64,000 nt of DNA from a virus: positions 21,636 through 85,635 of IMG/VR virus record IMGVR_UViG_3300010367_000378; one strand, given 5' to 3'. The position numbers were made by a program, and so were the translations under genes. This document shows positions 21,425 through 56,921 of this stretch, piece by piece. The notes beneath the pieces are model-generated. The model was not told the origin of the DNA, did no database searches, and saw only the letters and a list, made by a program, of their open reading frames with translations. The stretch's first letter is position 1, and each line of letters begins with the position of its first letter.

Positions 21425-22103
21425 ACGAAGAAGACGAGGGAGAGATCGGCTACGTCGAGGGGAAGCGCCGAGCGTTGTTGGGGGTACTCCGTCACGTCCT
21501 CGGCGAGTTGGGAGTAAAGGACCCCGAGGCGGGCAAGGTGCGGTGGGTGATCGAGCGCCAGGAGACGGTCGCCCAACTTCGCGCGGTCTGCGCCGATCAC
21601 GGCGACAACGACTGGGACGAGGACCTCCACCTCGGCGATGTCATCGAGAAGCACCTCGCTGACCCCCTCCGCGAGGCGGTGGAAGCGGACGAGATTCCCG
21701 ACCTGGTAGCAAACAGCCGTGTAAGGCTGGCCGGGTTCGTCTACCGGCTCACCTGGGGGAATCCCGACCGTGCCGACGAGAGGACTCGCTGGGTTCTCGT
21801 CCCGGATGGACCCGAGTCGCCGGCGGACTTCTTCGCCGCGGCCGAGGAACTGGCGGCTGCAGGTAGGACGGTGATGGCCCGGGCCTGGGTCGAGAAGCAG
21901 AAGGGACCGCTCCTGGACGCGTTGATGGAGTGCCTCGCCAGGGTCGACTGCCGCGCCGCAGCCGAGGATGTCGAAGCTCAGCGGAACGCGAGGCAAGTCC
22001 TCTCCGACCTGGGGATTGAGGTCCCGAGCTTGACCTACCCCGACAACGTTCTCGGCGGCGCCGGAAGAGCGAGGTCGCCTTCGCCGAGGAGCCCTCCGAA
22101 TGA
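21421..22103 (+). CDS. Hypothetical protein (apparent 1-nt deletion near 22063)
   Basis: Adding one G gives ...GKSEVAFAEEPSE* whose TGA overlaps the next ATG at 22100. Confidence 0.55.
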
Positions 22104-47793: not shown

Positions 47794-48864
47794 TTACGTG
47801 CTCCGGATGATCACGCCGGGCCCGAGCTTCGAGCTGGTCACCGCCTGGGTCCAGTTGCCGGCGGTGGCGAGGCCTGAGGAGTCGGGGTTGTCGGTCGCGG
47901 AGGAGTAGCTCATCCCCTTGACCTTGAGGGTGTAGGCCCAGTTCACCTGCAGGCGCCAGGTGATGTTGGCGGGGGCCGCGGCGACGGCGCCGGTGACGGG
48001 CCCAAAGACCCGGGCCTCGGGCTCGGTGTCCTCCACGTGGACCGCATCCGGGACGAGGCCCATCGTCAGGTAGTTGTCCGGGTTCGGGGTGGCGTCGAAC
48101 AGGCTGGGGTCGTCCGTGACGACCGGCACCCGGCCGCCCGTCCGCGTGGTGCCCTCGTAGATGGCGAGCTGGCCGGCGGCGAAGTTCTGGTTGACGATCG
48201 CGTCGCCGATCAGGTCGTGCCAGGGCTTGGAGTGCATGAAAAGGGAGACGATGCTGCTGCTGTGGTCGCCCAGCTTCGCGTACCCCGAGTTGAGGGCCGG
48301 GTGGTTGAGGGTCGGCGTGGCCGCGCCCGAGATGTCGAGGGTGACGGCAGAGCCGATGGCGCCGAACGCGCCGATGAGGGCGGCCAGGGCGGTGTTGAGC
48401 ATGTCCTTCGCCTTGAACTCGCCGAACTGGATGCCGGCGAGGCGCTGCCCCTCCTCGGTCCCGAGACCCAGGTCCAGGAAGTCCTGGTTGGTCCAGTCGT
48501 GGACGAACGAGCGGTAGACCTTGATGTCGGTGTACCCGACGTTCGAGAACAGCGCGGGGGTCACCGTGCCGGCCGAAGACGGGTCGCGGCGGGTGACCGG
48601 GGAAGAACCGGGGGCCGTGAAGAAGGTCGACTTCCGCCGGCGGCCGACAGCCGAGCCGCCGACCAGCCGGATGGCCCCACCGCCCGTGGCGTCGAAGCCA
48701 GTGATGATCTGGGACTGCCCCTCGTAGGAGCCGCCGCCGAACTGCTCGTCATAGAACACGAAGCCGGAGGGGCTCGCGCCGCGCGGGCGGGGAGAGCTCA
48801 GGTTCAGGCGGGCCGGCCACCGGCCGTTGCCACGGGAAAGCTGCTTCTGCATACGGGTCTCCAT
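47794..48864 (-). CDS. Major capsid protein
   Basis: RBS GGGGAGGA; FVFYDE..GAIRL..STFF..LNHPALNSGYAKLGD..MHSKPWHDL..GRVPVVTDDP..WAYTLKVKG..W pattern; follows the scaffold. Confidence 0.9.
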   Translation of the reverse strand: METRMQKQLSRGNGRWPARLNLSSPRPRGASPSGFVFYDEQFGGGSYEGQSQIITGFDATGGGAIRLVGGSAVGRRRKSTFFTAPGSSPVTRRDPSSAGTVTPALFSNVGYTDIKVYRSFVHDWTNQDFLDLGLGTEEGQRLAGIQFGEFKAKDMLNTALAALIGAFGAIGSAVTLDISGAATPTLNHPALNSGYAKLGDHSSSIVSLFMHSKPWHDLIGDAIVNQNFAAGQLAIYEGTTRTGGRVPVVTDDPSLFDATPNPDNYLTMGLVPDAVHVEDTEPEARVFGPVTGAVAAAPANITWRLQVNWAYTLKVKGMSYSSATDNPDSSGLATAGNWTQAVTSSKLGPGVIIRST

Positions 48865-48911
48865 CTGTCGATTCCTCCCCGGGCGCTCGCCGGCGACCGG
48901 TCGTTTGGGGT

Positions 48912-49877
48912 TTAAGCCGCCCGCCGGCCCGTCGCCGCCTGGGCGCGCTCGAGCAGGTCGTCGTCGACCATCTTCTGGGCGGCCTTCGCATCGGTCCGCC
49001 ACATCTCGCTCTTCTGCTTGTCGTCGAGTTGGGACCACTTGCGCCCCGCGTTGGGGTTCGTGGTGTTGACCGTCTCCGTCCCGCTACCCTGGCCCGCCGA
49101 GCGGAACAGGTACGAGAGCTTCGCGAGCGGCCCCTTGCCCTGGCGGGTGAGGAGCATCAGCTCCGCCGGGGTCATCATCCCGTCGGGGCTCGGGAGGACG
49201 CCGGTGGTGGGGAGCAGCGTGCCGTTGACGACGATCCGGGCCACCTGGCCCTCGATGCCGTCGACGGTGCGGGGCTCAATGATGCTCTGCATCGCCGAGA
49301 CGAGCTGGTCCCACGCACCCGGGTGGACGACCTGTGCGCTCTCCGGGATCGTGGCCAGAACGAGCTGGGCCTCCGTCCAGGCGCGCCGGTTGGCCTGCTT
49401 GAGATTCTCGATCTCCGTCGTGGCCGCCGTGAGCTTGTCCTCGCGGTCCTTGAGAACCAGCTTGTGCTCCTCCTCGAAGACCTTGTGCTTGGCCTGGGCG
49501 GCGGAGTCGACGTCGGCCTGGTACTTTTCGGGCTCCACGCCGTGCTCTCCCGCCTTGGTCTTGGTGCGGACGCCTTCCAGTTCAGCTTTCAGGCGGTCCC
49601 GCTCCTCGGCCGCGGCCTTCTTCTCGGCGAGGATCTGTTCCTTGTTGGCGAGGATCTTGGCCTTCTCATCCTCCGCCGTGGTCCGGGCTGCCGTAACCGC
49701 CGCGGTGATCAGCGCCTGCACCGCCGGGTTCGACGCGTCGATCACAGGCGTCGAAGGCTCGGCCGGGGGCTGCTGCTCACCCTCACCGCGAGGAAAGGGG
49801 AGCGTGAAAGACGGCCACTGGCCGGGCTTTCGGGAAACCGGATGGACGGGGCGATCGGCTAGGGTCCTGTTCAACAT
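48912..49877 (-). CDS. Capsid scaffolding protein
   Basis: RBS AGGAGG; coiled coil, acidic/basic, ends GQGSG..W..DDKQKSEM; directly upstream of the capsid gene. Confidence 0.85.
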   Translation of the reverse strand: MLNRTLADRPVHPVSRKPGQWPSFTLPFPRGEGEQQPPAEPSTPVIDASNPAVQALITAAVTAARTTAEDEKAKILANKEQILAEKKAAAEERDRLKAELEGVRTKTKAGEHGVEPEKYQADVDSAAQAKHKVFEEEHKLVLKDREDKLTAATTEIENLKQANRRAWTEAQLVLATIPESAQVVHPGAWDQLVSAMQSIIEPRTVDGIEGQVARIVVNGTLLPTTGVLPSPDGMMTPAELMLLTRQGKGPLAKLSYLFRSAGQGSGTETVNTTNPNAGRKWSQLDDKQKSEMWRTDAKAAQKMVDDDLLERAQAATGRRAA

Positions 49878-50458: not shown

Positions 50459-50648
50459 GATGGGATGGCGGATTCTCTGGCTATGGCATTTCTTCGTCTC
50501 CTGCATCGATCGGGAAGGACAGCCGCGGGCGTGGGCCAGCGGCGCTTCTCAGGGCGGGAGGAGGCTCTTCTGGATCTGCGAATGCGGAAGATCCCATGAA
50601 GGTGCTCCCCCAGCCTGGCCAGAACGGCTGGGGTCCCCTTCCTCGTGA
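50459..50648 (+). CDS. Small Trp/Cys-rich protein
   Basis: ATG next to the XRE stop; MGWRILWLWHFFVSC..WICECG. Confidence 0.45.
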
Positions 50649-50746
50649 GCGTCCGAGCACGCGTCCGGTGGTGGAAGACCGGGCACGTCCGGCGCCGGCC
50701 ATGGTGGGCCTGGCGCGCCGAATACCTGCGCAGGGAAATCGGATGA
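50645..50746 (+). CDS. 33-aa Arg/Trp-rich peptide
   Basis: GTGA and ATGA coupling; MSVRARVRWWKTGHVRRRPWWAWRAEYLRREIG. Confidence 0.4.
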   Translation: MSVRARVRWWKTGHVRRRPWWAWRAEYLRREIG

Positions 50747-51174
50747 AGCCCGTCAACCAGACGCTCCACGGGGAGGTCGGGAACTGCTTCGCTGCCTGCC
50801 TGGCGTCCCTCCTAGAGCTCCCCATCTCCGAGGTCCCCAACCTGGCCGTGGACGGCCTGCCGCCCTTCGATCCTGACGATCATCTCCGGTGGGCAAGGGC
50901 CTTCTACCAGAACGTCAACCGCTGGCTGGAGCCCCGGGGCCTTTTCTATTTCGAGGTCGGTTCACACGGCGGGGTCCCCCAAGAGATCTGGGAGGCGATT
51001 CCACCGGACGGCTACTGGATCGGGATTGATCCAGAATATGGGCCTCATGGGCACGCCGTTGTAATGCAGGGCCGGGAGATGGTCCACGATCCGCACCCCA
51101 GCCGGGCCGGGGTTCGGGAAATCTGGTCGGTTGGGCTCTTGATCCCTTTGGACCCGGCGAGAACTCGGGCTTGA
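50743..51174 (+). CDS. Papain-like (C39-like) cysteine peptidase-fold protein
   Basis: NQ..GNCFAACLASLL..GHAVVM..VHDP gives the Q/C/H/D order. Confidence 0.65.
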   Translation: MKPVNQTLHGEVGNCFAACLASLLELPISEVPNLAVDGLPPFDPDDHLRWARAFYQNVNRWLEPRGLFYFEVGSHGGVPQEIWEAIPPDGYWIGIDPEYGPHGHAVVMQGREMVHDPHPSRAGVREIWSVGLLIPLDPARTRA

Positions 51175-51708
51175 GCCTGGAAGCGCCGACGCTGGTCCGC
51201 CGCCCTCGCCTTCCCGGCCTCCCCAAGGGCTGGCACACGAAGATCTCGATCCACCCGTGGAAGATCCCGAAGCCATTTCTTCCGAAAGGCCACCAGCCGG
51301 AGGTCTTCCTCGTGGTGCGGGTCTACGATGACCCGGAGGCCATGTATAGAGCCTTCCGCAAGCTCTCGAAGAAATGGAGCAGAAAATCCGGCCGCGATGA
51401 CTTCGCGGGGGCCGTGATCCCGACGCCGCGCCGGCGATCCGGACGCCTTCTCCATCAAAAAGCCGTTCGCGGAAGTCTTTCTCCTCCGGTCGGCATTGTG
51501 CTCGGAGGTCATCGCCCACGAGAGCGTCCACGCGGCCACCGCTTACCTGCGGGGTCTCCGCTGGGTGCGCGGGAAGGGGATCGAGCTCTCCGTCGGGCCC
51601 TGCGGTGGTTTTCCGCGCGAGGAGAGAGTCGCCTACCTGGCGGGGCAGTTCGCCGGCGCAATCCAGTCCGCGCTGGTAGAGGCTCGGGTGTGGAGCGGCC
51701 GGCCATAG
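51171..51708 (+). CDS. HExxH zinc metallopeptidase-like protein (frameshift between ~51418 and 51470)
   Basis: N-half from TTG 51171; +1 frame gives FAEVFLLRSALCSEVIAHESVH..EERVAYLAG. Confidence 0.55.
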
Positions 51709-51752
51709 AGGAGAGGCGTATACTCTGGCCCGTCGACCCCAAGGAGATCGCG

Positions 51753-51875
51753 ATGAAGAAGAAGCCGCTGTTCGGGGGCAAGAAAGCCGCCCCCTTCGGG
51801 AAGGGTGGTGGCCGGAAAGGGAGTCACCCCAACACGGCCAAGGGGACGCCGCGAAAGAGCAAGGCCAAGAAGTAG
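51753..51875 (+). CDS. 40-aa Lys/Gly-rich basic peptide
   Basis: RBS AAGGAG; MKKKPLFGGKKAAPFGKGGGRKGSHPNTAKGTPRKSKAKK. Confidence 0.65.
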   Translation: MKKKPLFGGKKAAPFGKGGGRKGSHPNTAKGTPRKSKAKK

Positions 51876-51887
51876 GTCAGCAAGCCG

Positions 51888-51907
51888 CCCTCGTCAGACC
51901 ACGAGGG
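51888..51907 (-). promoter_or_regulatory. Candidate bacterial SECIS hairpin (alternative: terminator)
   Basis: CCCUCGU-GGUCUG-ACGAGGG; apical loop begins 21 nt after the UGA. Confidence 0.5.
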
Positions 51908-52757
51908 TTTCCCAGCAGCGTCAGCCATAGTCCAGGCTTGGCGGGTGCTGGACCTTCATGATCTGGAACAACGCCTCGAGCGGGATCGGTCCGACCGCGG
52001 CCTGCGCCCGGTGAAGCGGCCGGACACGTCCATCGCCCTGTGTCCTCCAGACCTTCTTCGCCGTCGGAGGAATGCTTCCTGTCTTCTTCGCCTCGAGCCA
52101 GCTCTGATGCCGGCCGAAAGAAACCGATTCGATGAGCCCGCGGTCGGCAATGGCCTGCGCCCGCAACGCCTTCCCGGCAGCCGCTCGTTCAGCGACGCCG
52201 GCTGATACCTGCTCTGGAGTCAAAGAGCTCGCAGAGGCTCCAGCCCGCCAAGCTTCGACGCGGGCCGCCTGCTTCGGGGTGAGCCCGATGACAGAACGGA
52301 TTTCTTCCCGCAGTCGGCGCAGCGTCTTGAGGCTTTGATTTCCGACATACTCCTGGGCCGCTCGGCCGATCGACTGGCGGATGCCCGCCCTGGTCACGGC
52401 GTCTATCCCCTCGGCCAGGTCAACCGCCAATTGCCGGCCGAACTCCGAGGCGAGCTCCCCGACCCTGGCGCTGAGGGCTGGTGCTGCTGCAGAAGGAAGA
52501 AGGGCGATTCCCTGTTCGAGTCCGGTCTCGACGAGGCTGTGTTCCACCGCCGAGAGCGCCGCTTCGAGACGGGAGCGGGCTGCGATCCATTGCGGGCTGT
52601 TCGTGAGGGGGTTGGGGGAACCCGTCTTAATCCCTGCGTCAATCCGGGCCGCTTTGACGTCCGCCTCGAGGCTGGAGGTGTAGTCCTCGATCGCCGCTGC
52701 CAGGGTGGTCAGCTCATCCTCCAGGCCGGCGTAGGGGTCCTCCTCGACGGCGGACAT
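51894..52757 (-). CDS. MuF/SPP1 gp7-like head morphogenesis protein with in-frame TGA at 51921-51923 (candidate selenocysteine)
   Basis: KKVWRTQGDGRVRPLH..HPPSLDYG-TGA-RCWETLVV-TGA; read-through restores the family CRC motif. Confidence 0.75.
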
Positions 52758-52762
52758 TCAAC

Positions 52763-54442
52763 TCACGTCCCGATGAAGGATTGAGTCCTGGCCAGCGCCG
52801 AGTTGTCCGCCGCGGCAGCAGGATCAGCACCCCCCGGGCCACCCAAGGCCGCCCTGTTGGCGGCGTCCCACGCCAGCTCCGAGGCAACGTCGAACGTCTG
52901 CTGGTCCACGTCGCCGGCGCGCTTCGCCTCGGCCCAGTAGTTCTTCGGGCTCATCTTGTCGGCCACGAAGAGGGCATGGAGCCTCTCCATCCCGGTGTTG
53001 GGCAGGCCGAAATCGTGAGGGATCGAGACGGCGCCCCGCTTGGGGAGCCCTCCCAAGAGCGCCATGAGGTCGAGAATCCTCTTCCAGGCCTGCTCTTGAA
53101 AGATCACCCACATCTCCAGCGCGGAGGAGGCCTGCACCCCCTGGAGGGTGATCTCGCGGGCGGTGACGGGCCCCGTGGGGCGTTCGACCTGGATCTGGTG
53201 GTGAGCCTTCTCGATGAGGGCGATCTTCCACTCGACGACTTCCATCACGGACTTCAGCGCCGTCCCCTGCATCTCGGCGATCGTCAGCGTTGCAGCCGCC
53301 TCCGTGGAGACGAAGAACCGAGTTCCCCTGGTATCCGGCAGCAGCGGCTTCTTCGTAACAGGATCGAGCCCGACACCGCTCTGGTGGACGAACGCGATCG
53401 TCGCTTCCCGGGCCAGGTTGAGCAACTCGCTGTTGTGGTTCCAGATCGTGTTCTGGGTCCACGCCGTGTCGAGGAAGGGACAGTGGCCGCGGTAGGGTCC
53501 CTTGCGGTCGGTGTAGTGGGGAACCAGCGGGATATCGAGGAGCTCATCCAAGGGGTTGTCGGGGAGGATGAAGCCGCGCTTGGTCGTGTCCTCAACCCAC
53601 TCCCCCTTCGAATTCTTGACGTAGAGTTGGGTCCTGACCTTCCGTTCGTCGCTCCCCTTCTCGGCATCTGGATTACCGGCCGTCACCACCTTGCAGGCGG
53701 GCGTCGCGTCGTCCACCCAGGCGTCGGGGTCCGCAACGTCGACGGTCGTGATCGGCTGGTCGAGAACGATCTGCTTCAGGCGCGGGACTCCGTTGCGGGT
53801 CTCGAGCGTGATGCGCCGAACATGACAGCGCCGGAATTTCGTGACCCGCGGTTGCGCCCCTGCTGCTCGCCGGCTTGCGGGATCGGGAAACTGCCGGGGG
53901 TCGTTGTCGACGAAAGAGAACACGACCCCCTCAAAGAGCGCGTCGGCGAAGGTCTCGGCGGCGTACTCGTCCAGGTTCTGCCCCTCGGCCGTCAGGGTAT
54001 CGACCCACCCAGGCGTCCGATGCACCAGCTCCCCAGAGGGTCCCATCTCGGACTTGCCGGCAAGCTCCTCGTCGTAGCCGGCGATGGTGATCCGGGAGCG
54101 GAAGGGGAGGCGAGCCGTCGATCGGATCGACTCGGCCCAGGGGTTCGGCATGTCCGAGCGGTTGACCCGGCGGAAGTAGAGGGTGTCGGTGAGCCCTGAT
54201 ACGGCAGAGGCGGAGCTCACGGCGCCAGCCGTCGCCGATGGGCCTCCGCCGACCGTGATCACTTCCATCTCGCCCGGGTTCGGCCACATGAAGCGGAAGC
54301 CGCGGGCGTGCTCCCGCATAGCGGTTACGCCCTCCCTCAACGCCACGGCGAGGAGGTGCGCCTCTTCGTCCTTCCGAATCCAATCGCTCTGTTCATCGAC
54401 ACGGCGACGGACCGGACCGTCGGCAGCCTTTGGAGTTTTCAC
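52763..54442 (-). CDS. Portal protein (DUF4055-like)
   Basis: Follows TerL; DAEGQNLDEYA..ALFEGVVFSFVD..IPLVPHY..CPFLDTA..IWNHNSE. Confidence 0.9.
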   Translation of the reverse strand: MKTPKAADGPVRRRVDEQSDWIRKDEEAHLLAVALREGVTAMREHARGFRFMWPNPGEMEVITVGGGPSATAGAVSSASAVSGLTDTLYFRRVNRSDMPNPWAESIRSTARLPFRSRITIAGYDEELAGKSEMGPSGELVHRTPGWVDTLTAEGQNLDEYAAETFADALFEGVVFSFVDNDPRQFPDPASRRAAGAQPRVTKFRRCHVRRITLETRNGVPRLKQIVLDQPITTVDVADPDAWVDDATPACKVVTAGNPDAEKGSDERKVRTQLYVKNSKGEWVEDTTKRGFILPDNPLDELLDIPLVPHYTDRKGPYRGHCPFLDTAWTQNTIWNHNSELLNLAREATIAFVHQSGVGLDPVTKKPLLPDTRGTRFFVSTEAAATLTIAEMQGTALKSVMEVVEWKIALIEKAHHQIQVERPTGPVTAREITLQGVQASSALEMWVIFQEQAWKRILDLMALLGGLPKRGAVSIPHDFGLPNTGMERLHALFVADKMSPKNYWAEAKRAGDVDQQTFDVASELAWDAANRAALGGPGGADPAAAADNSALARTQSFIGT

Positions 54443-54457
54443 GATGGGTGAATGGTA

Positions 54458-56707
54458 TCACCACCCCGGAGGACGCGGCATGGCGGCCGACTGCGCAGGG
54501 GGAGGGGGCTCCTCATAGACCTCCTCGTAGGCGTCGACCGTCGCGTCGACGTCGTCGTCGATGCGCCCCTCGTCCCCGGTGAACGACTGCAGGATCTGGA
54601 GCCAGAACGTCCACCAGTCGCCAGCGAAGAGGGCTCCCTTCGCCGCGATCTCCCTGAGCTCCGGGTGGGCCGAGACCTTCTCGCTCCAGTTTTCGACCAG
54701 GTGGGAGATGGCCGGTTCCCAGGAGGCGCCGACGAACTGGATGCCCCCGGGGATGTCCGGCGCCGGCGGTTGGGCCCTGCTCCGGAAGGCGTCGGCGCGC
54801 GCGGCCTTCGCCGACAGGGTCGCCGTCGCCGCCCGGCGTGGGCGCTTGCAGATGATCTCCGGGACCGGCATCCCTACCCAGCCCGCCACCTCCCGGAGAT
54901 AGCGGACGATCTCATCCGCCCACCCCTCGCCGCCGGTGGCGGGGTCGATCGGGATGCGGATCTTGACCCCCGGGCCATCGAGCAGCATCGCCGCGGCGAT
55001 GAGTTGCTTCACGCCACGCGGAGCGAACTGGCCCCGGACGACGTGGCGGAGAATGATGTCGCCGCCAGCCTTCGTTCGACCCATCTTCGAGCCGACCGTG
55101 AAGTCGCCGCCGCCCTCGGTCGAGGCGAGGTCCCAGGCCCGGACGCAGATCTCGTAGATGTCCTCGTTCGCTACGAGCCCGGCGATCGCGGGGTCCCGGT
55201 CGAGGCGGACGAACCACTCCGACTCGAAGTTGCCGCCGCGCTCGACGCCCTTCGGATTCTGCTGGCACTCGCAGGCCGCGATGATCGGCCCCCGGATCTT
55301 GAAGACGACCCGCCATGCGTCGGCGCTCCGGCGCTCTGGCCAGAGCGGGGTCCCCGGCTCGGTCCGGAAGTCCGGCAGGATCTCGAAGAGGGGATACATC
55401 TCCCGGTAGCCGTCGAGCACGGCCGGGTCATAGACCGCGGAGAGGGCGAGGATGCCCCACTTCTCATCGGCCGTGGGGTTTTCGGCGAGGGCGGCGTGGC
55501 TGAGGCCCATGGCGTAGCCGATGAGGTCGCCTTTGTCCCAGCGCGTGACCGTCGCGCAGAGCTTCTGGCGGCGCATCTCGGCGGCGAACATCGACTCGCG
55601 GGCGCGGAGGACGCTGCCGTAGCGGGTCCGTTTCTTCTCCTGGGCACTCTTGTTGACGGCGTCCGCCCAGTCCTGATCCGGATCGTCGGGGAAGACCCAG
55701 GAGGCCGGGTTTCCTGTCTGGCCAGCAGCCATGCCGGCCGACCAGCAGCCGCCTCCTGCCTTCGTCTTCCACTCCTGGACCGCCTGGCGGCCGGGCTCGA
55801 ACTCGCCACCGGACTTCTTGAAGTTGGCCCGGGCGTCCGCGCTCCTCTTGTTCGCGATCTTGGTGTTGTAGGAGACGATCGAGCACCAGTCGCTGGGGAA
55901 CCGGTGGAGGATGTAGGGGACGGCATGACGCGGGCCGGCCTCGGTCTTGCCGTGCTGGGACGGGATAAAGATCGCGAGGTGATCGAAGGCGCCGTCGATC
56001 CAGCGGTCGACGGCGCCGACGATCGAGGGGGTGTGGGGGGCCCAGATGAACTTCCCGCCGAAGTGGCGCTCCAGCCACTCCCGGTAGGATGGGAAGGCCG
56101 GGCGCTTGATCAGCTCGGGGTCGAGATCTTTCGGGTCGAGAAGGAAGACGCGGCGGCCAGAGCTGCCGTTGACGCTCCAGTGTCGAGACACCCAGCCGGG
56201 CTCCAAGGCCGATCGAGCAGCAGCGACGACCCTCCGGAGTGGGTGAGGGCTTGCGAGAGTCGCGTCGCGGAGGAGAGTGAAGACGTGCTCCGAGACGTCC
56301 TCGGCCTGGTCGACGAGCAGCACGTCGGGGCGGCGGTCGAGCGCCTTGAGAGCTTCCGACTCCCGGTTGCAGCCGATCCAACGGATTGAGGAACCATTCC
56401 TGAACCGGATCTCGCCTTGAAGAGCCTCGGCGAAGCCGTGGGACTGCATCTCCCGGACCATCGAGAGAAGGCCGTCCTGGCCGCCGACGTGGTCGCGGTA
56501 GACGTCCGTCTCATCTTTCTGGAGGATCAGGACCGAGGTCCCGTCTCGGGATGTACAGGCCCGGAGCGCCATGGCGCGCAGCAGGTACGACGCTCCGGCC
56601 GGGACACCGCGGGCGGCGCTCGACAGGAGGAGCTCCGGAACACCATCGAGGCGGAGTGCCTCGAACTGCCCGCGGAACAGGCGGAAGATCGATCTTGGAC
56701 GGGCCAC
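54458..56707 (-). CDS. Terminase large subunit with an extra N-terminal degenerate ATPase domain
   Basis: Intact module IFIPSQHGKT..FPDDP..TRWDKGDLIG and RNase H nuclease RAWDLAS..GDFTVG..DDDVDA; first ~200 aa resemble a second terminase ATPase. Confidence 0.92.
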   Translation of the reverse strand: MARPRSIFRLFRGQFEALRLDGVPELLLSSAARGVPAGASYLLRAMALRACTSRDGTSVLILQKDETDVYRDHVGGQDGLLSMVREMQSHGFAEALQGEIRFRNGSSIRWIGCNRESEALKALDRRPDVLLVDQAEDVSEHVFTLLRDATLASPHPLRRVVAAARSALEPGWVSRHWSVNGSSGRRVFLLDPKDLDPELIKRPAFPSYREWLERHFGGKFIWAPHTPSIVGAVDRWIDGAFDHLAIFIPSQHGKTEAGPRHAVPYILHRFPSDWCSIVSYNTKIANKRSADARANFKKSGGEFEPGRQAVQEWKTKAGGGCWSAGMAAGQTGNPASWVFPDDPDQDWADAVNKSAQEKKRTRYGSVLRARESMFAAEMRRQKLCATVTRWDKGDLIGYAMGLSHAALAENPTADEKWGILALSAVYDPAVLDGYREMYPLFEILPDFRTEPGTPLWPERRSADAWRVVFKIRGPIIAACECQQNPKGVERGGNFESEWFVRLDRDPAIAGLVANEDIYEICVRAWDLASTEGGGDFTVGSKMGRTKAGGDIILRHVVRGQFAPRGVKQLIAAAMLLDGPGVKIRIPIDPATGGEGWADEIVRYLREVAGWVGMPVPEIICKRPRRAATATLSAKAARADAFRSRAQPPAPDIPGGIQFVGASWEPAISHLVENWSEKVSAHPELREIAAKGALFAGDWWTFWLQILQSFTGDEGRIDDDVDATVDAYEEVYEEPPPPAQSAAMPRPPGW

Positions 56708-56844
56708 GTTTGTTTCAAATGGTACGCGATCAGCTTGGAACTTCTAACCTGCCGCGAGTAGAATCCACGCCTGGAGCCCCCTGGGGCCGGATCGGTCACG
56801 TTGACACGTGGTTGAAGCGATGGTGGTGGGGGGCTTCTTTCGAT

Positions 56845-56921
56845 AGCGGGATGGCGCAGCCTGGTAGCGCGGCGGACTCATAATCCGCAGGTCGCGGGTT
56901 CAAGTCCCGCTCCCGCAACCA
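56845..56921 (+). tRNA. tRNA-Met(CAU), initiator-like, CCA encoded
   Basis: Full cloverleaf: AGCGGGA/TCCCGCA acceptor, GCGC D-stem, GCGGA-CTCATAA-TCCGC, GCGGG-TTCAAGT-CCCGC, ACCA. Confidence 0.95.

Follow-up and report, generated by a model that had tools for sequence, protein, structure and literature searches.

The gene considered here lies in a stretch of DNA of 64,000 nucleotides, called the window below, which covers positions 21,636 to 85,635 of the IMG/VR virus record IMGVR_UViG_3300010367_000378. It encodes a head morphogenesis protein of the Mu F / SPP1 gp7 kind (MuF-like), occupies positions 51897..52757 of the minus strand and comprises 287 codons including an internal UGA. This in-frame UGA (51921..51923, -) is codon 279 and stands, according to the sequence and the alignments, at the first Cys of a C-terminal C-R-C motif. 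The UGA is very probably decoded in a site-specific manner, and its position, the conserved frame behind it and a hairpin at the proper distance suggest that it most likely specifies selenocysteine (Sec). The source record is a linear sequence of 87.9 kb with 68% G+C and an estimated completeness of 81%. It occurs in soil metagenomes and represents an uncultured phage.

The open reading frame (ORF) up to the first stop (52757..51921, -) encodes 278 amino acids, which match the PHROG head morphogenesis families phrog_3517 (E 3e-15) and phrog_2468 (E 4e-8). The match to Pfam PF04233 (Phage_Mu_F) is weak and below threshold (E 0.02; 16.1 bits compared to a cut-off of 29.6), and one relative, P0004, has a weak precomputed match to the same family. 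The AlphaFold2 model of the protein, for which 33 relatives served as input, has a predicted local distance difference test score (pLDDT) of 96.4 and a predicted template modelling score (pTM) of 0.91. Comparison of the fold with BFVD resulted in 71 matches at E <= 1e-3, the best with a template modelling (TM) score of 0.77, and among the 50 matches listed nearly all of the named ones are head morphogenesis or minor capsid proteins. The PDB, searched by sequence and by fold, contains no match that is informative for the C-terminal motif. The family profile matches the repeats of TAL effectors (6jw0, E 4.6e-7) by way of a repeated 'GLTPxQ' helix-loop motif in residues ~69-164 of the MuF-like protein (window ~52266-52553, -), which is probably a repeat-like helical similarity rather than homology.

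The protein shares with Mu F and SPP1 gp7 (PF04233) the position of its gene after those of the terminase and the portal, the match to PHROG head morphogenesis families and the predicted fold, as well as the C-terminal motif P-P-x(n)-C-R-C with a short hydrophobic strand behind it. It differs from them in that its Pfam match is below threshold and in having UGA as the codon for the first Cys in C-R-C. Relatives were collected by searching 1.84 billion cluster representatives with a profile, and the counts given below refer to the best 150 of 2,841 matches. Among these, C279, R280 and C281 vary little or not at all. The matches fall largely into a class with C-x2-C...C-R-C (88 of the 150), which resembles a four-Cys zinc site, and a class with R-x2-H...C-R-C (43 of the 150). 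The window protein belongs to the latter, as R-x2-H...C/U-R-C; in its clade R-x2-H occupies the place of the C-x2-C found in most of the family. We know of no function that has been established for C-R-C in the MuF family. If the four-Cys class is a guide, Sec or Cys at position 279 probably binds a metal in concert with His249, Cys281 and Asp/Glu276; alternatively, this residue could be a reactive centre.

The initial annotation had described the end of the ORF as HPPSLDYG followed by TGA, RCWETLVV and a second TGA, and had placed the first TGA on the conserved Cys of MuF proteins. The sequence reads exactly so, and the alignments put the TGA on the invariant first Cys of C-R-C. The eight codons after the UGA (CGC TGC TGG GAA ACC CTC GTG GTC; 51897..51920, -) encode R-C-W-E-T-L-V-V, a peptide conserved in homologues of both the Cys type and the TGA type, although the codons differ synonymously. 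They are followed by the second TGA (51894..51896, -), the true stop, at about the place where the Cys-type homologues terminate. In the AlphaFold2 model, residues 282-286, all of which are encoded after the UGA, form a beta-strand, one of the few in the C-terminal domain. According to this model the tail beyond the UGA is structurally needed, as a strand of a confidently predicted fold. A reassignment of TGA throughout the genome was rejected, because 9 of the 18 large genes of the phage, those of the terminase and the portal among them, use TGA as their ordinary stop, and because the genes that neighbour four further TGA-type genes, described next, are intact under the standard code.

The stop at the Cys codon is not confined to the window. 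The four nearest relatives (41-51% identity) all have G-C-R-C-W-E-x-L, and the codon in question is TGC in 12/12 Cys-type loci for which DNA is available. Four divergent relatives (P0020, P0023, P0026 and P0036; less than 50% identity) were found by the profile search to stop at the Gly that precedes C-R-C. The corresponding DNA (loci L012-L015), which comes from four unrelated data sets and has 47-67% G+C, contains TGA at the codon in all four cases. The in-frame tails after these TGA codons read RCWMILLVP, RCWEILAVLP..., RCWENLVLPGEG... and RCWMEIIAPGA and extend for 9-23 codons before a real stop. With the window included, R-C-W-(E/M)-x-(L/I) follows the TGA in 5/5 TGA forms, which fits the Cys-type consensus C-R-C-W-E-x-L-V. 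The third codon positions vary between the TGA lineages (CGC/CGA/CGG; CTC/TTA/CTG/CTA) and the peptide is kept, as expected under selection at the protein level. In the L013 lineage the TGA is reproduced on an ENA contig labelled with 33x coverage. Gene callers cut short the TGA-type MuF-like genes, and the proteins of all five are stored in truncated form.

A sixth relative, P0054, belongs to the R-x2-H class and is encoded on a 58.7-kb contig of ERR3274948. Its sequence, known from the protein alone, ends with ...EFGCR inside the contig, which places the stop at the second Cys and may represent a C-R-U variant. Thus all six premature stops seen (6/6) are located on the two Cys codons of C-R-C, and stops at any other codon of the domain were not seen among the 150 matches listed. 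The five TGA forms are spread over a maximum-likelihood tree built from 41 relatives. Five changes are needed to explain their distribution, at least two of which are forced by well-supported branches, and none of the bootstrap trees has a single origin of the TGA forms. The alternation of Cys and TGA among MuF homologues, which the initial annotation had named as a check of its proposal, is therefore present in five divergent lineages with the downstream frame, including R-C, conserved. Searches for additional cases were less productive: a DNA pattern for further TGA forms in IMG/VR gave 69 matches, all of them due to chance, exact-pattern scans around the TGA site found none in metagenome and viral collections, and a word-based protein search with a 33-sequence profile was unproductive.

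Downstream of the UGA in the window there is a hairpin that resembles a bacterial selenocysteine insertion sequence (SECIS) element (51888..51907, -). With the loop in square brackets it reads CCCUCGU[GGUCUG]ACGAGGG, a perfect stem of 7 bp and a 6-nt loop starting with GG, and its folding energy is -11.8 kcal/mol. The 5' arm CCCUCGU occupies 51907..51901, the loop GGUCUG 51900..51895 and the 3' arm ACGAGGG 51894..51888. The stem is separated from the UGA by 13 nt and the loop by 20 nt, the first loop base being the 21st nucleotide. The second TGA takes up the final two loop bases and the adjoining base of the 3' arm. Stem, loop and distance were found as the initial annotation had given them, and so were the TTT beyond the hairpin, where the plus strand reads TTTCCC only, and the presence of GCAGGUCUGC in the SECIS element of E. 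coli fdhF.

The published consensus of bacterial SECIS elements (PMC13188914) has a loop of 3-9 nt, a stem of 4-16 bp, a distance of 16-37 nt from the UGA, an energy of -7.5 kcal/mol or lower, and a G within the first two loop positions, with G or U as a frequent next base. The window hairpin agrees with this consensus in every item, as do the hairpins of L013 (UCUGGC[CGUGUU]GCCAGA), L014 (GUCCUUC[CGGGA]GAAGGGC) and L015 (CAUCGCGC[CGGGC]GCGUGAUG). The hairpin of L012, a bulged stem with the loop GUGA within a longer structure, agrees only if the lower stem is included. In 5/5 UGA forms the loop starts 20-26 nt after the UGA and has a G in its first two bases, and the energies range from -5.1 to -11.8 kcal/mol.

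Compared to their own contigs, the hairpins of the UGA forms have empirical p values of 0.03-0.09 each, which combine to a Fisher p of 0.0013; for the window hairpin compared to all positions of the window the empirical p is 0.03. In the window, some 2-2.5% of all TGA triplets are followed by a perfect hairpin of at least 7 bp with bacterial SECIS geometry. A hairpin placed like those of the UGA forms and with an energy of -7.5 kcal/mol or better was found after only 11.6% of 95 ordinary stops in the same contigs, and hairpins at this offset are about 5-10 times commoner at the UGA forms than after ordinary stops. None of six Cys-type lineages (0/6; p 0.22-1.0) has a comparable hairpin, so that the same hairpin in all close Cys homologues, which the initial annotation had named as a ground for refutation, was not encountered. 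In L015 the hairpin is unlikely to be a terminator, because the next gene is co-directional and overlapping. The window hairpin may serve as both SECIS element and terminator. Altogether, the hairpin is necessary and consistent evidence for the decoding of the UGA as Sec, but it is not a proof.

In the proposed mechanism, the SelA/SelB/SelD/tRNA-Sec system of the host would decode the UGA at codon 279 as Sec. The hairpin, acting as a bacterial SECIS element, would hold the complex of SelB, GTP and Sec-tRNA at the ribosome while the UGA occupies the A site. Translation would then continue for eight codons to the second UGA, which is followed by no hairpin and at which termination would be normal. 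The product would be a protein of 287 residues with a C-terminal U-R-C in place of C-R-C. Sec is favoured because it is the standard mechanism by which an analogue of Cys is placed at a UGA with a downstream hairpin. Of the proposal in the initial annotation that the phage puts Sec into a MuF protein, the recurrent UGA at the Cys codon, the conserved tail and the hairpin have held up; that the inserted residue is Sec and that the hairpin binds SelB is what we infer from them. The role of residue 279 as a metal ligand or a reactive residue is likewise deduced from the motif.

A number of observations weigh against the decoding of the UGA as Sec by a phage-borne SECIS element. The 87.9-kb phage record contains no selA, selB or tRNA-Sec and only a tRNA-Met, selD not having been searched. 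Prophage relatives were sought in 185,579 species genomes with protein patterns and with a DNA pattern that recovers all known members; only chance matches were obtained, so no host could be assigned. The replaced Cys resembles a metal ligand and not a classical redox-active Cys. As for the RNA, the folding of the whole region is ordinary: the 61-nt region in the window has a z-score of -1.2, and such scores of whole segments were not kept as a criterion, because neither the TGA nor the Cys forms reach significance. An Rfam scan of 51800-52050 at E <= 10 returned two chance miRNA matches and no SECIS family. The hairpin score itself misses the true SECIS element of E. coli fdhF (p 0.31), as it measures simple hairpins only and is not a validated SECIS detector. 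The five UGA-form hairpins have no sequence in common, and close relatives of the TGA forms were not found in IMG/VR. Finally, the hairpin is located between convergent genes in the window, L012 and L013, and terminator hairpins follow closely on the stops of two Cys-type relatives, L119 and L010, so that a terminator would also account for a hairpin at a short distance behind the first stop.

These last observations bear on the view that the TGA is a genuine nonsense allele, carried by a defective or minority variant or tolerated as a truncation, in which case the protein would end at Gly278 and the hairpin would be the terminator between the MuF-like gene and the convergent small ORF. A change of TGC to TGA is a single transversion and the sole one-step route from this Cys codon to a stop; the read support of the window site amounts to one contig at about 3x depth; and the nearest sampled relatives share no more than 51% identity, which is too distant to date the mutation. 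This account is nevertheless quite improbable. The same codon would have had to be hit in five independent lineages, and the nearby Cys codon in a sixth; one of these lineages has 33x coverage. R-C-W-(E/M)-x-(L/I) is kept behind the stop in 5/5 cases with synonymous changes, the tail forms a beta-strand of a very confident predicted fold, and the excess of hairpins over those after ordinary stops also speaks against a nonsense allele. A neutral or defective allele is very unlikely because it would require five to six independent events on two Cys codons and none elsewhere, each so recent that the tail is still intact.

An error of assembly or base calling, with TGC as the true codon, had been raised in the initial annotation and is extremely improbable. 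The metagenome has low coverage, and the one contig that spans the site in the Logan assembly of a soil run, 449 nt long and with a depth of ~3.3, may come from the source sample, which makes the support by reads thin; in two other runs the contigs break near the TGA at low depth and are uninformative. The spanning contig is an independent assembly, however, and contains the TGA without a difference, so that two assemblies agree, and TGA is found in four unrelated data sets with divergent sequences.

It is unlikely, though less so than a nonsense allele, that the UGA is decoded by other means than Sec. It could be read as Cys, either by a specialised tRNA that has a UCA anticodon and works with a SelB-like factor or by an opal suppressor allo-tRNA of the host, or it could be subject to leaky read-through of a weak UGA-C context that is aided by the hairpin and yields little full-length protein. 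The comparative signature, in which a UGA takes the place of a Cys codon and is followed by a conserved tail and a hairpin, would be the same as for Sec. Mukai et al. (PMC5389517) have described a tRNA-Cys that mimics tRNA-Sec in deltaproteobacteria and possible opal-suppressor allo-tRNAs in Acidobacteria, which are common in soil. These systems are, however, rare and limited to a few bacterial lineages, and no suppressor tRNA is present in any of the loci. All five sites are UGA-C, as leaky read-through would have it, but the C after the UGA is dictated by the CGN codon of the conserved Arg. MuF-type proteins are usually regarded as low-copy, and an inefficient yield could suffice for such a protein. 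Ordinary read-through of UGA inserts mainly Trp, which would not substitute for an invariant Cys, and leakiness does not explain why the stop coincides with a Cys codon in 6/6 cases; it is less attractive than the routes that insert Cys.

It is somewhat more likely than not that MuF-like head morphogenesis proteins of uncultured phages are a true selenoprotein family with several independent Cys/Sec switches in C-R-C, which would be the first one described for phages and for virion-assembly proteins. These phages would use the host SelA/SelB/tRNA-Sec by means of their own SECIS elements, and functional heads would be formed only in Sec-competent hosts supplied with selenium. That particle maturation is tied in this manner to selenium status, as the initial annotation had proposed, is a speculation.

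The phage gene may be compared with those of bacterial selenoproteins such as E. coli FdhF. Both have an in-frame UGA aligned with Cys, a conserved downstream frame and a hairpin with GGU opening a small apical loop, which lies about 20 nt after the UGA in the phage and 18 nt after it in fdhF; the hexamer GGUCUG is common to the window hairpin and the fdhF element. The phage gene differs in that it codes for a morphogenesis protein and not an oxidoreductase, its UGA is 8 codons from the end, and its hairpin, which includes the real stop codon, lacks a bulged U. Among viruses, a review of recoding (PMC8310308) lists as selenoproteins only the glutathione peroxidases of poxviruses (molluscum contagiosum and fowlpox). 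They likewise are encoded by virus genes that rely on the Sec machinery of the host, as is proposed for the phage, but they are captured eukaryotic redox enzymes with a SECIS element of the eukaryotic type, whereas the phage protein is a native assembly protein with an element of the bacterial type. A 2026 review of the prokaryotic selenoproteome (PMC13188914) does not mention phages. No natural phage selenoprotein, and no Sec-containing member of the MuF family, was found in the searchable literature, in accord with the initial annotation, which knew of none described among phage structural proteins.

If the UGA is indeed decoded as Sec, the MuF-like proteins would represent a new family of selenoproteins that are not oxidoreductases, and the first described in phages, and phages would be seen to carry SECIS elements of their own. 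The UGA would be a sequence marker of host range, as only Sec-decoding hosts would support the phage, and the production of phage would be linked to a trace element. The Sec variant would also mark C-R-C as chemically important, either as a metal ligand or as a reactive centre.

The MuF-like gene, whose protein has the identifier P0159, is part of a head module on the minus strand. The portal gene (52763..54442, -; phrog_145, E 9e-26; DUF4055) is immediately upstream of it, and the gene of the terminase large subunit (54458..56707, -; phrog_38, E 3e-38) precedes the portal gene. The module continues downstream of the MuF-like gene with the gene of the major head protein (47794..49038, -; phrog_247, E 1e-28). 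The MuF-like protein has no match in cultured phages, and the terminase is at most 29% identical to theirs. The terminase is unusually long, 749 aa, and its family matches start only at about residue 157. The tRNA-Met (56845-56921, +), the sole tRNA of the record, is just upstream of the terminase gene and adjoins the one sigma-70-like promoter match (56735-56764).

The head module is split between the MuF-like gene and the scaffold and capsid genes by a plus-strand cassette (50596-51875), which comprises a phrog_5845 gene and small ORFs. The last of these is the convergent ORF of 39 aa (51756..51875, +), which is rich in Lys and Gly, starts with AAGGAG-N6-ATG and fits the phase of the G+C content at third codon positions (GC3); it stops 12 nt short of the hairpin and has no family match. 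A longer ORF of 234 aa ends at the same position (51171-51875, +). Its GC3 phase shifts at ~51400 and ~51700, and it therefore probably consists of several small genes. A weak match to phrog_18398 is found at 51496-51708 (+). In the relatives P0003 and P0004 the equivalent slot contains a convergent homing endonuclease with NUMOD4 and HNH_3 domains (L009 5517-6131), which suggests that the slot after the MuF gene is a recurrent insertion spot.

Several Cys-type relatives (P0006-P0009, P0011, P0016 and P0019; for example L011 5001-6467 and L118 349-2115) have long C-terminal extensions past the MuF domain and reach 488-654 aa. The tail of P0006 contains an R...S-x-T...E pattern that is reminiscent of ADP-ribosyltransferases, as in MuF polymorphic toxins. 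Elsewhere in the window, the plus-strand ORF 14158-15459 matches BCS1_N, AAA and AAA_lid_BCS1 (Pfam E 1e-11 to 3e-15), that is, a Bcs1-like AAA ATPase in a phage.
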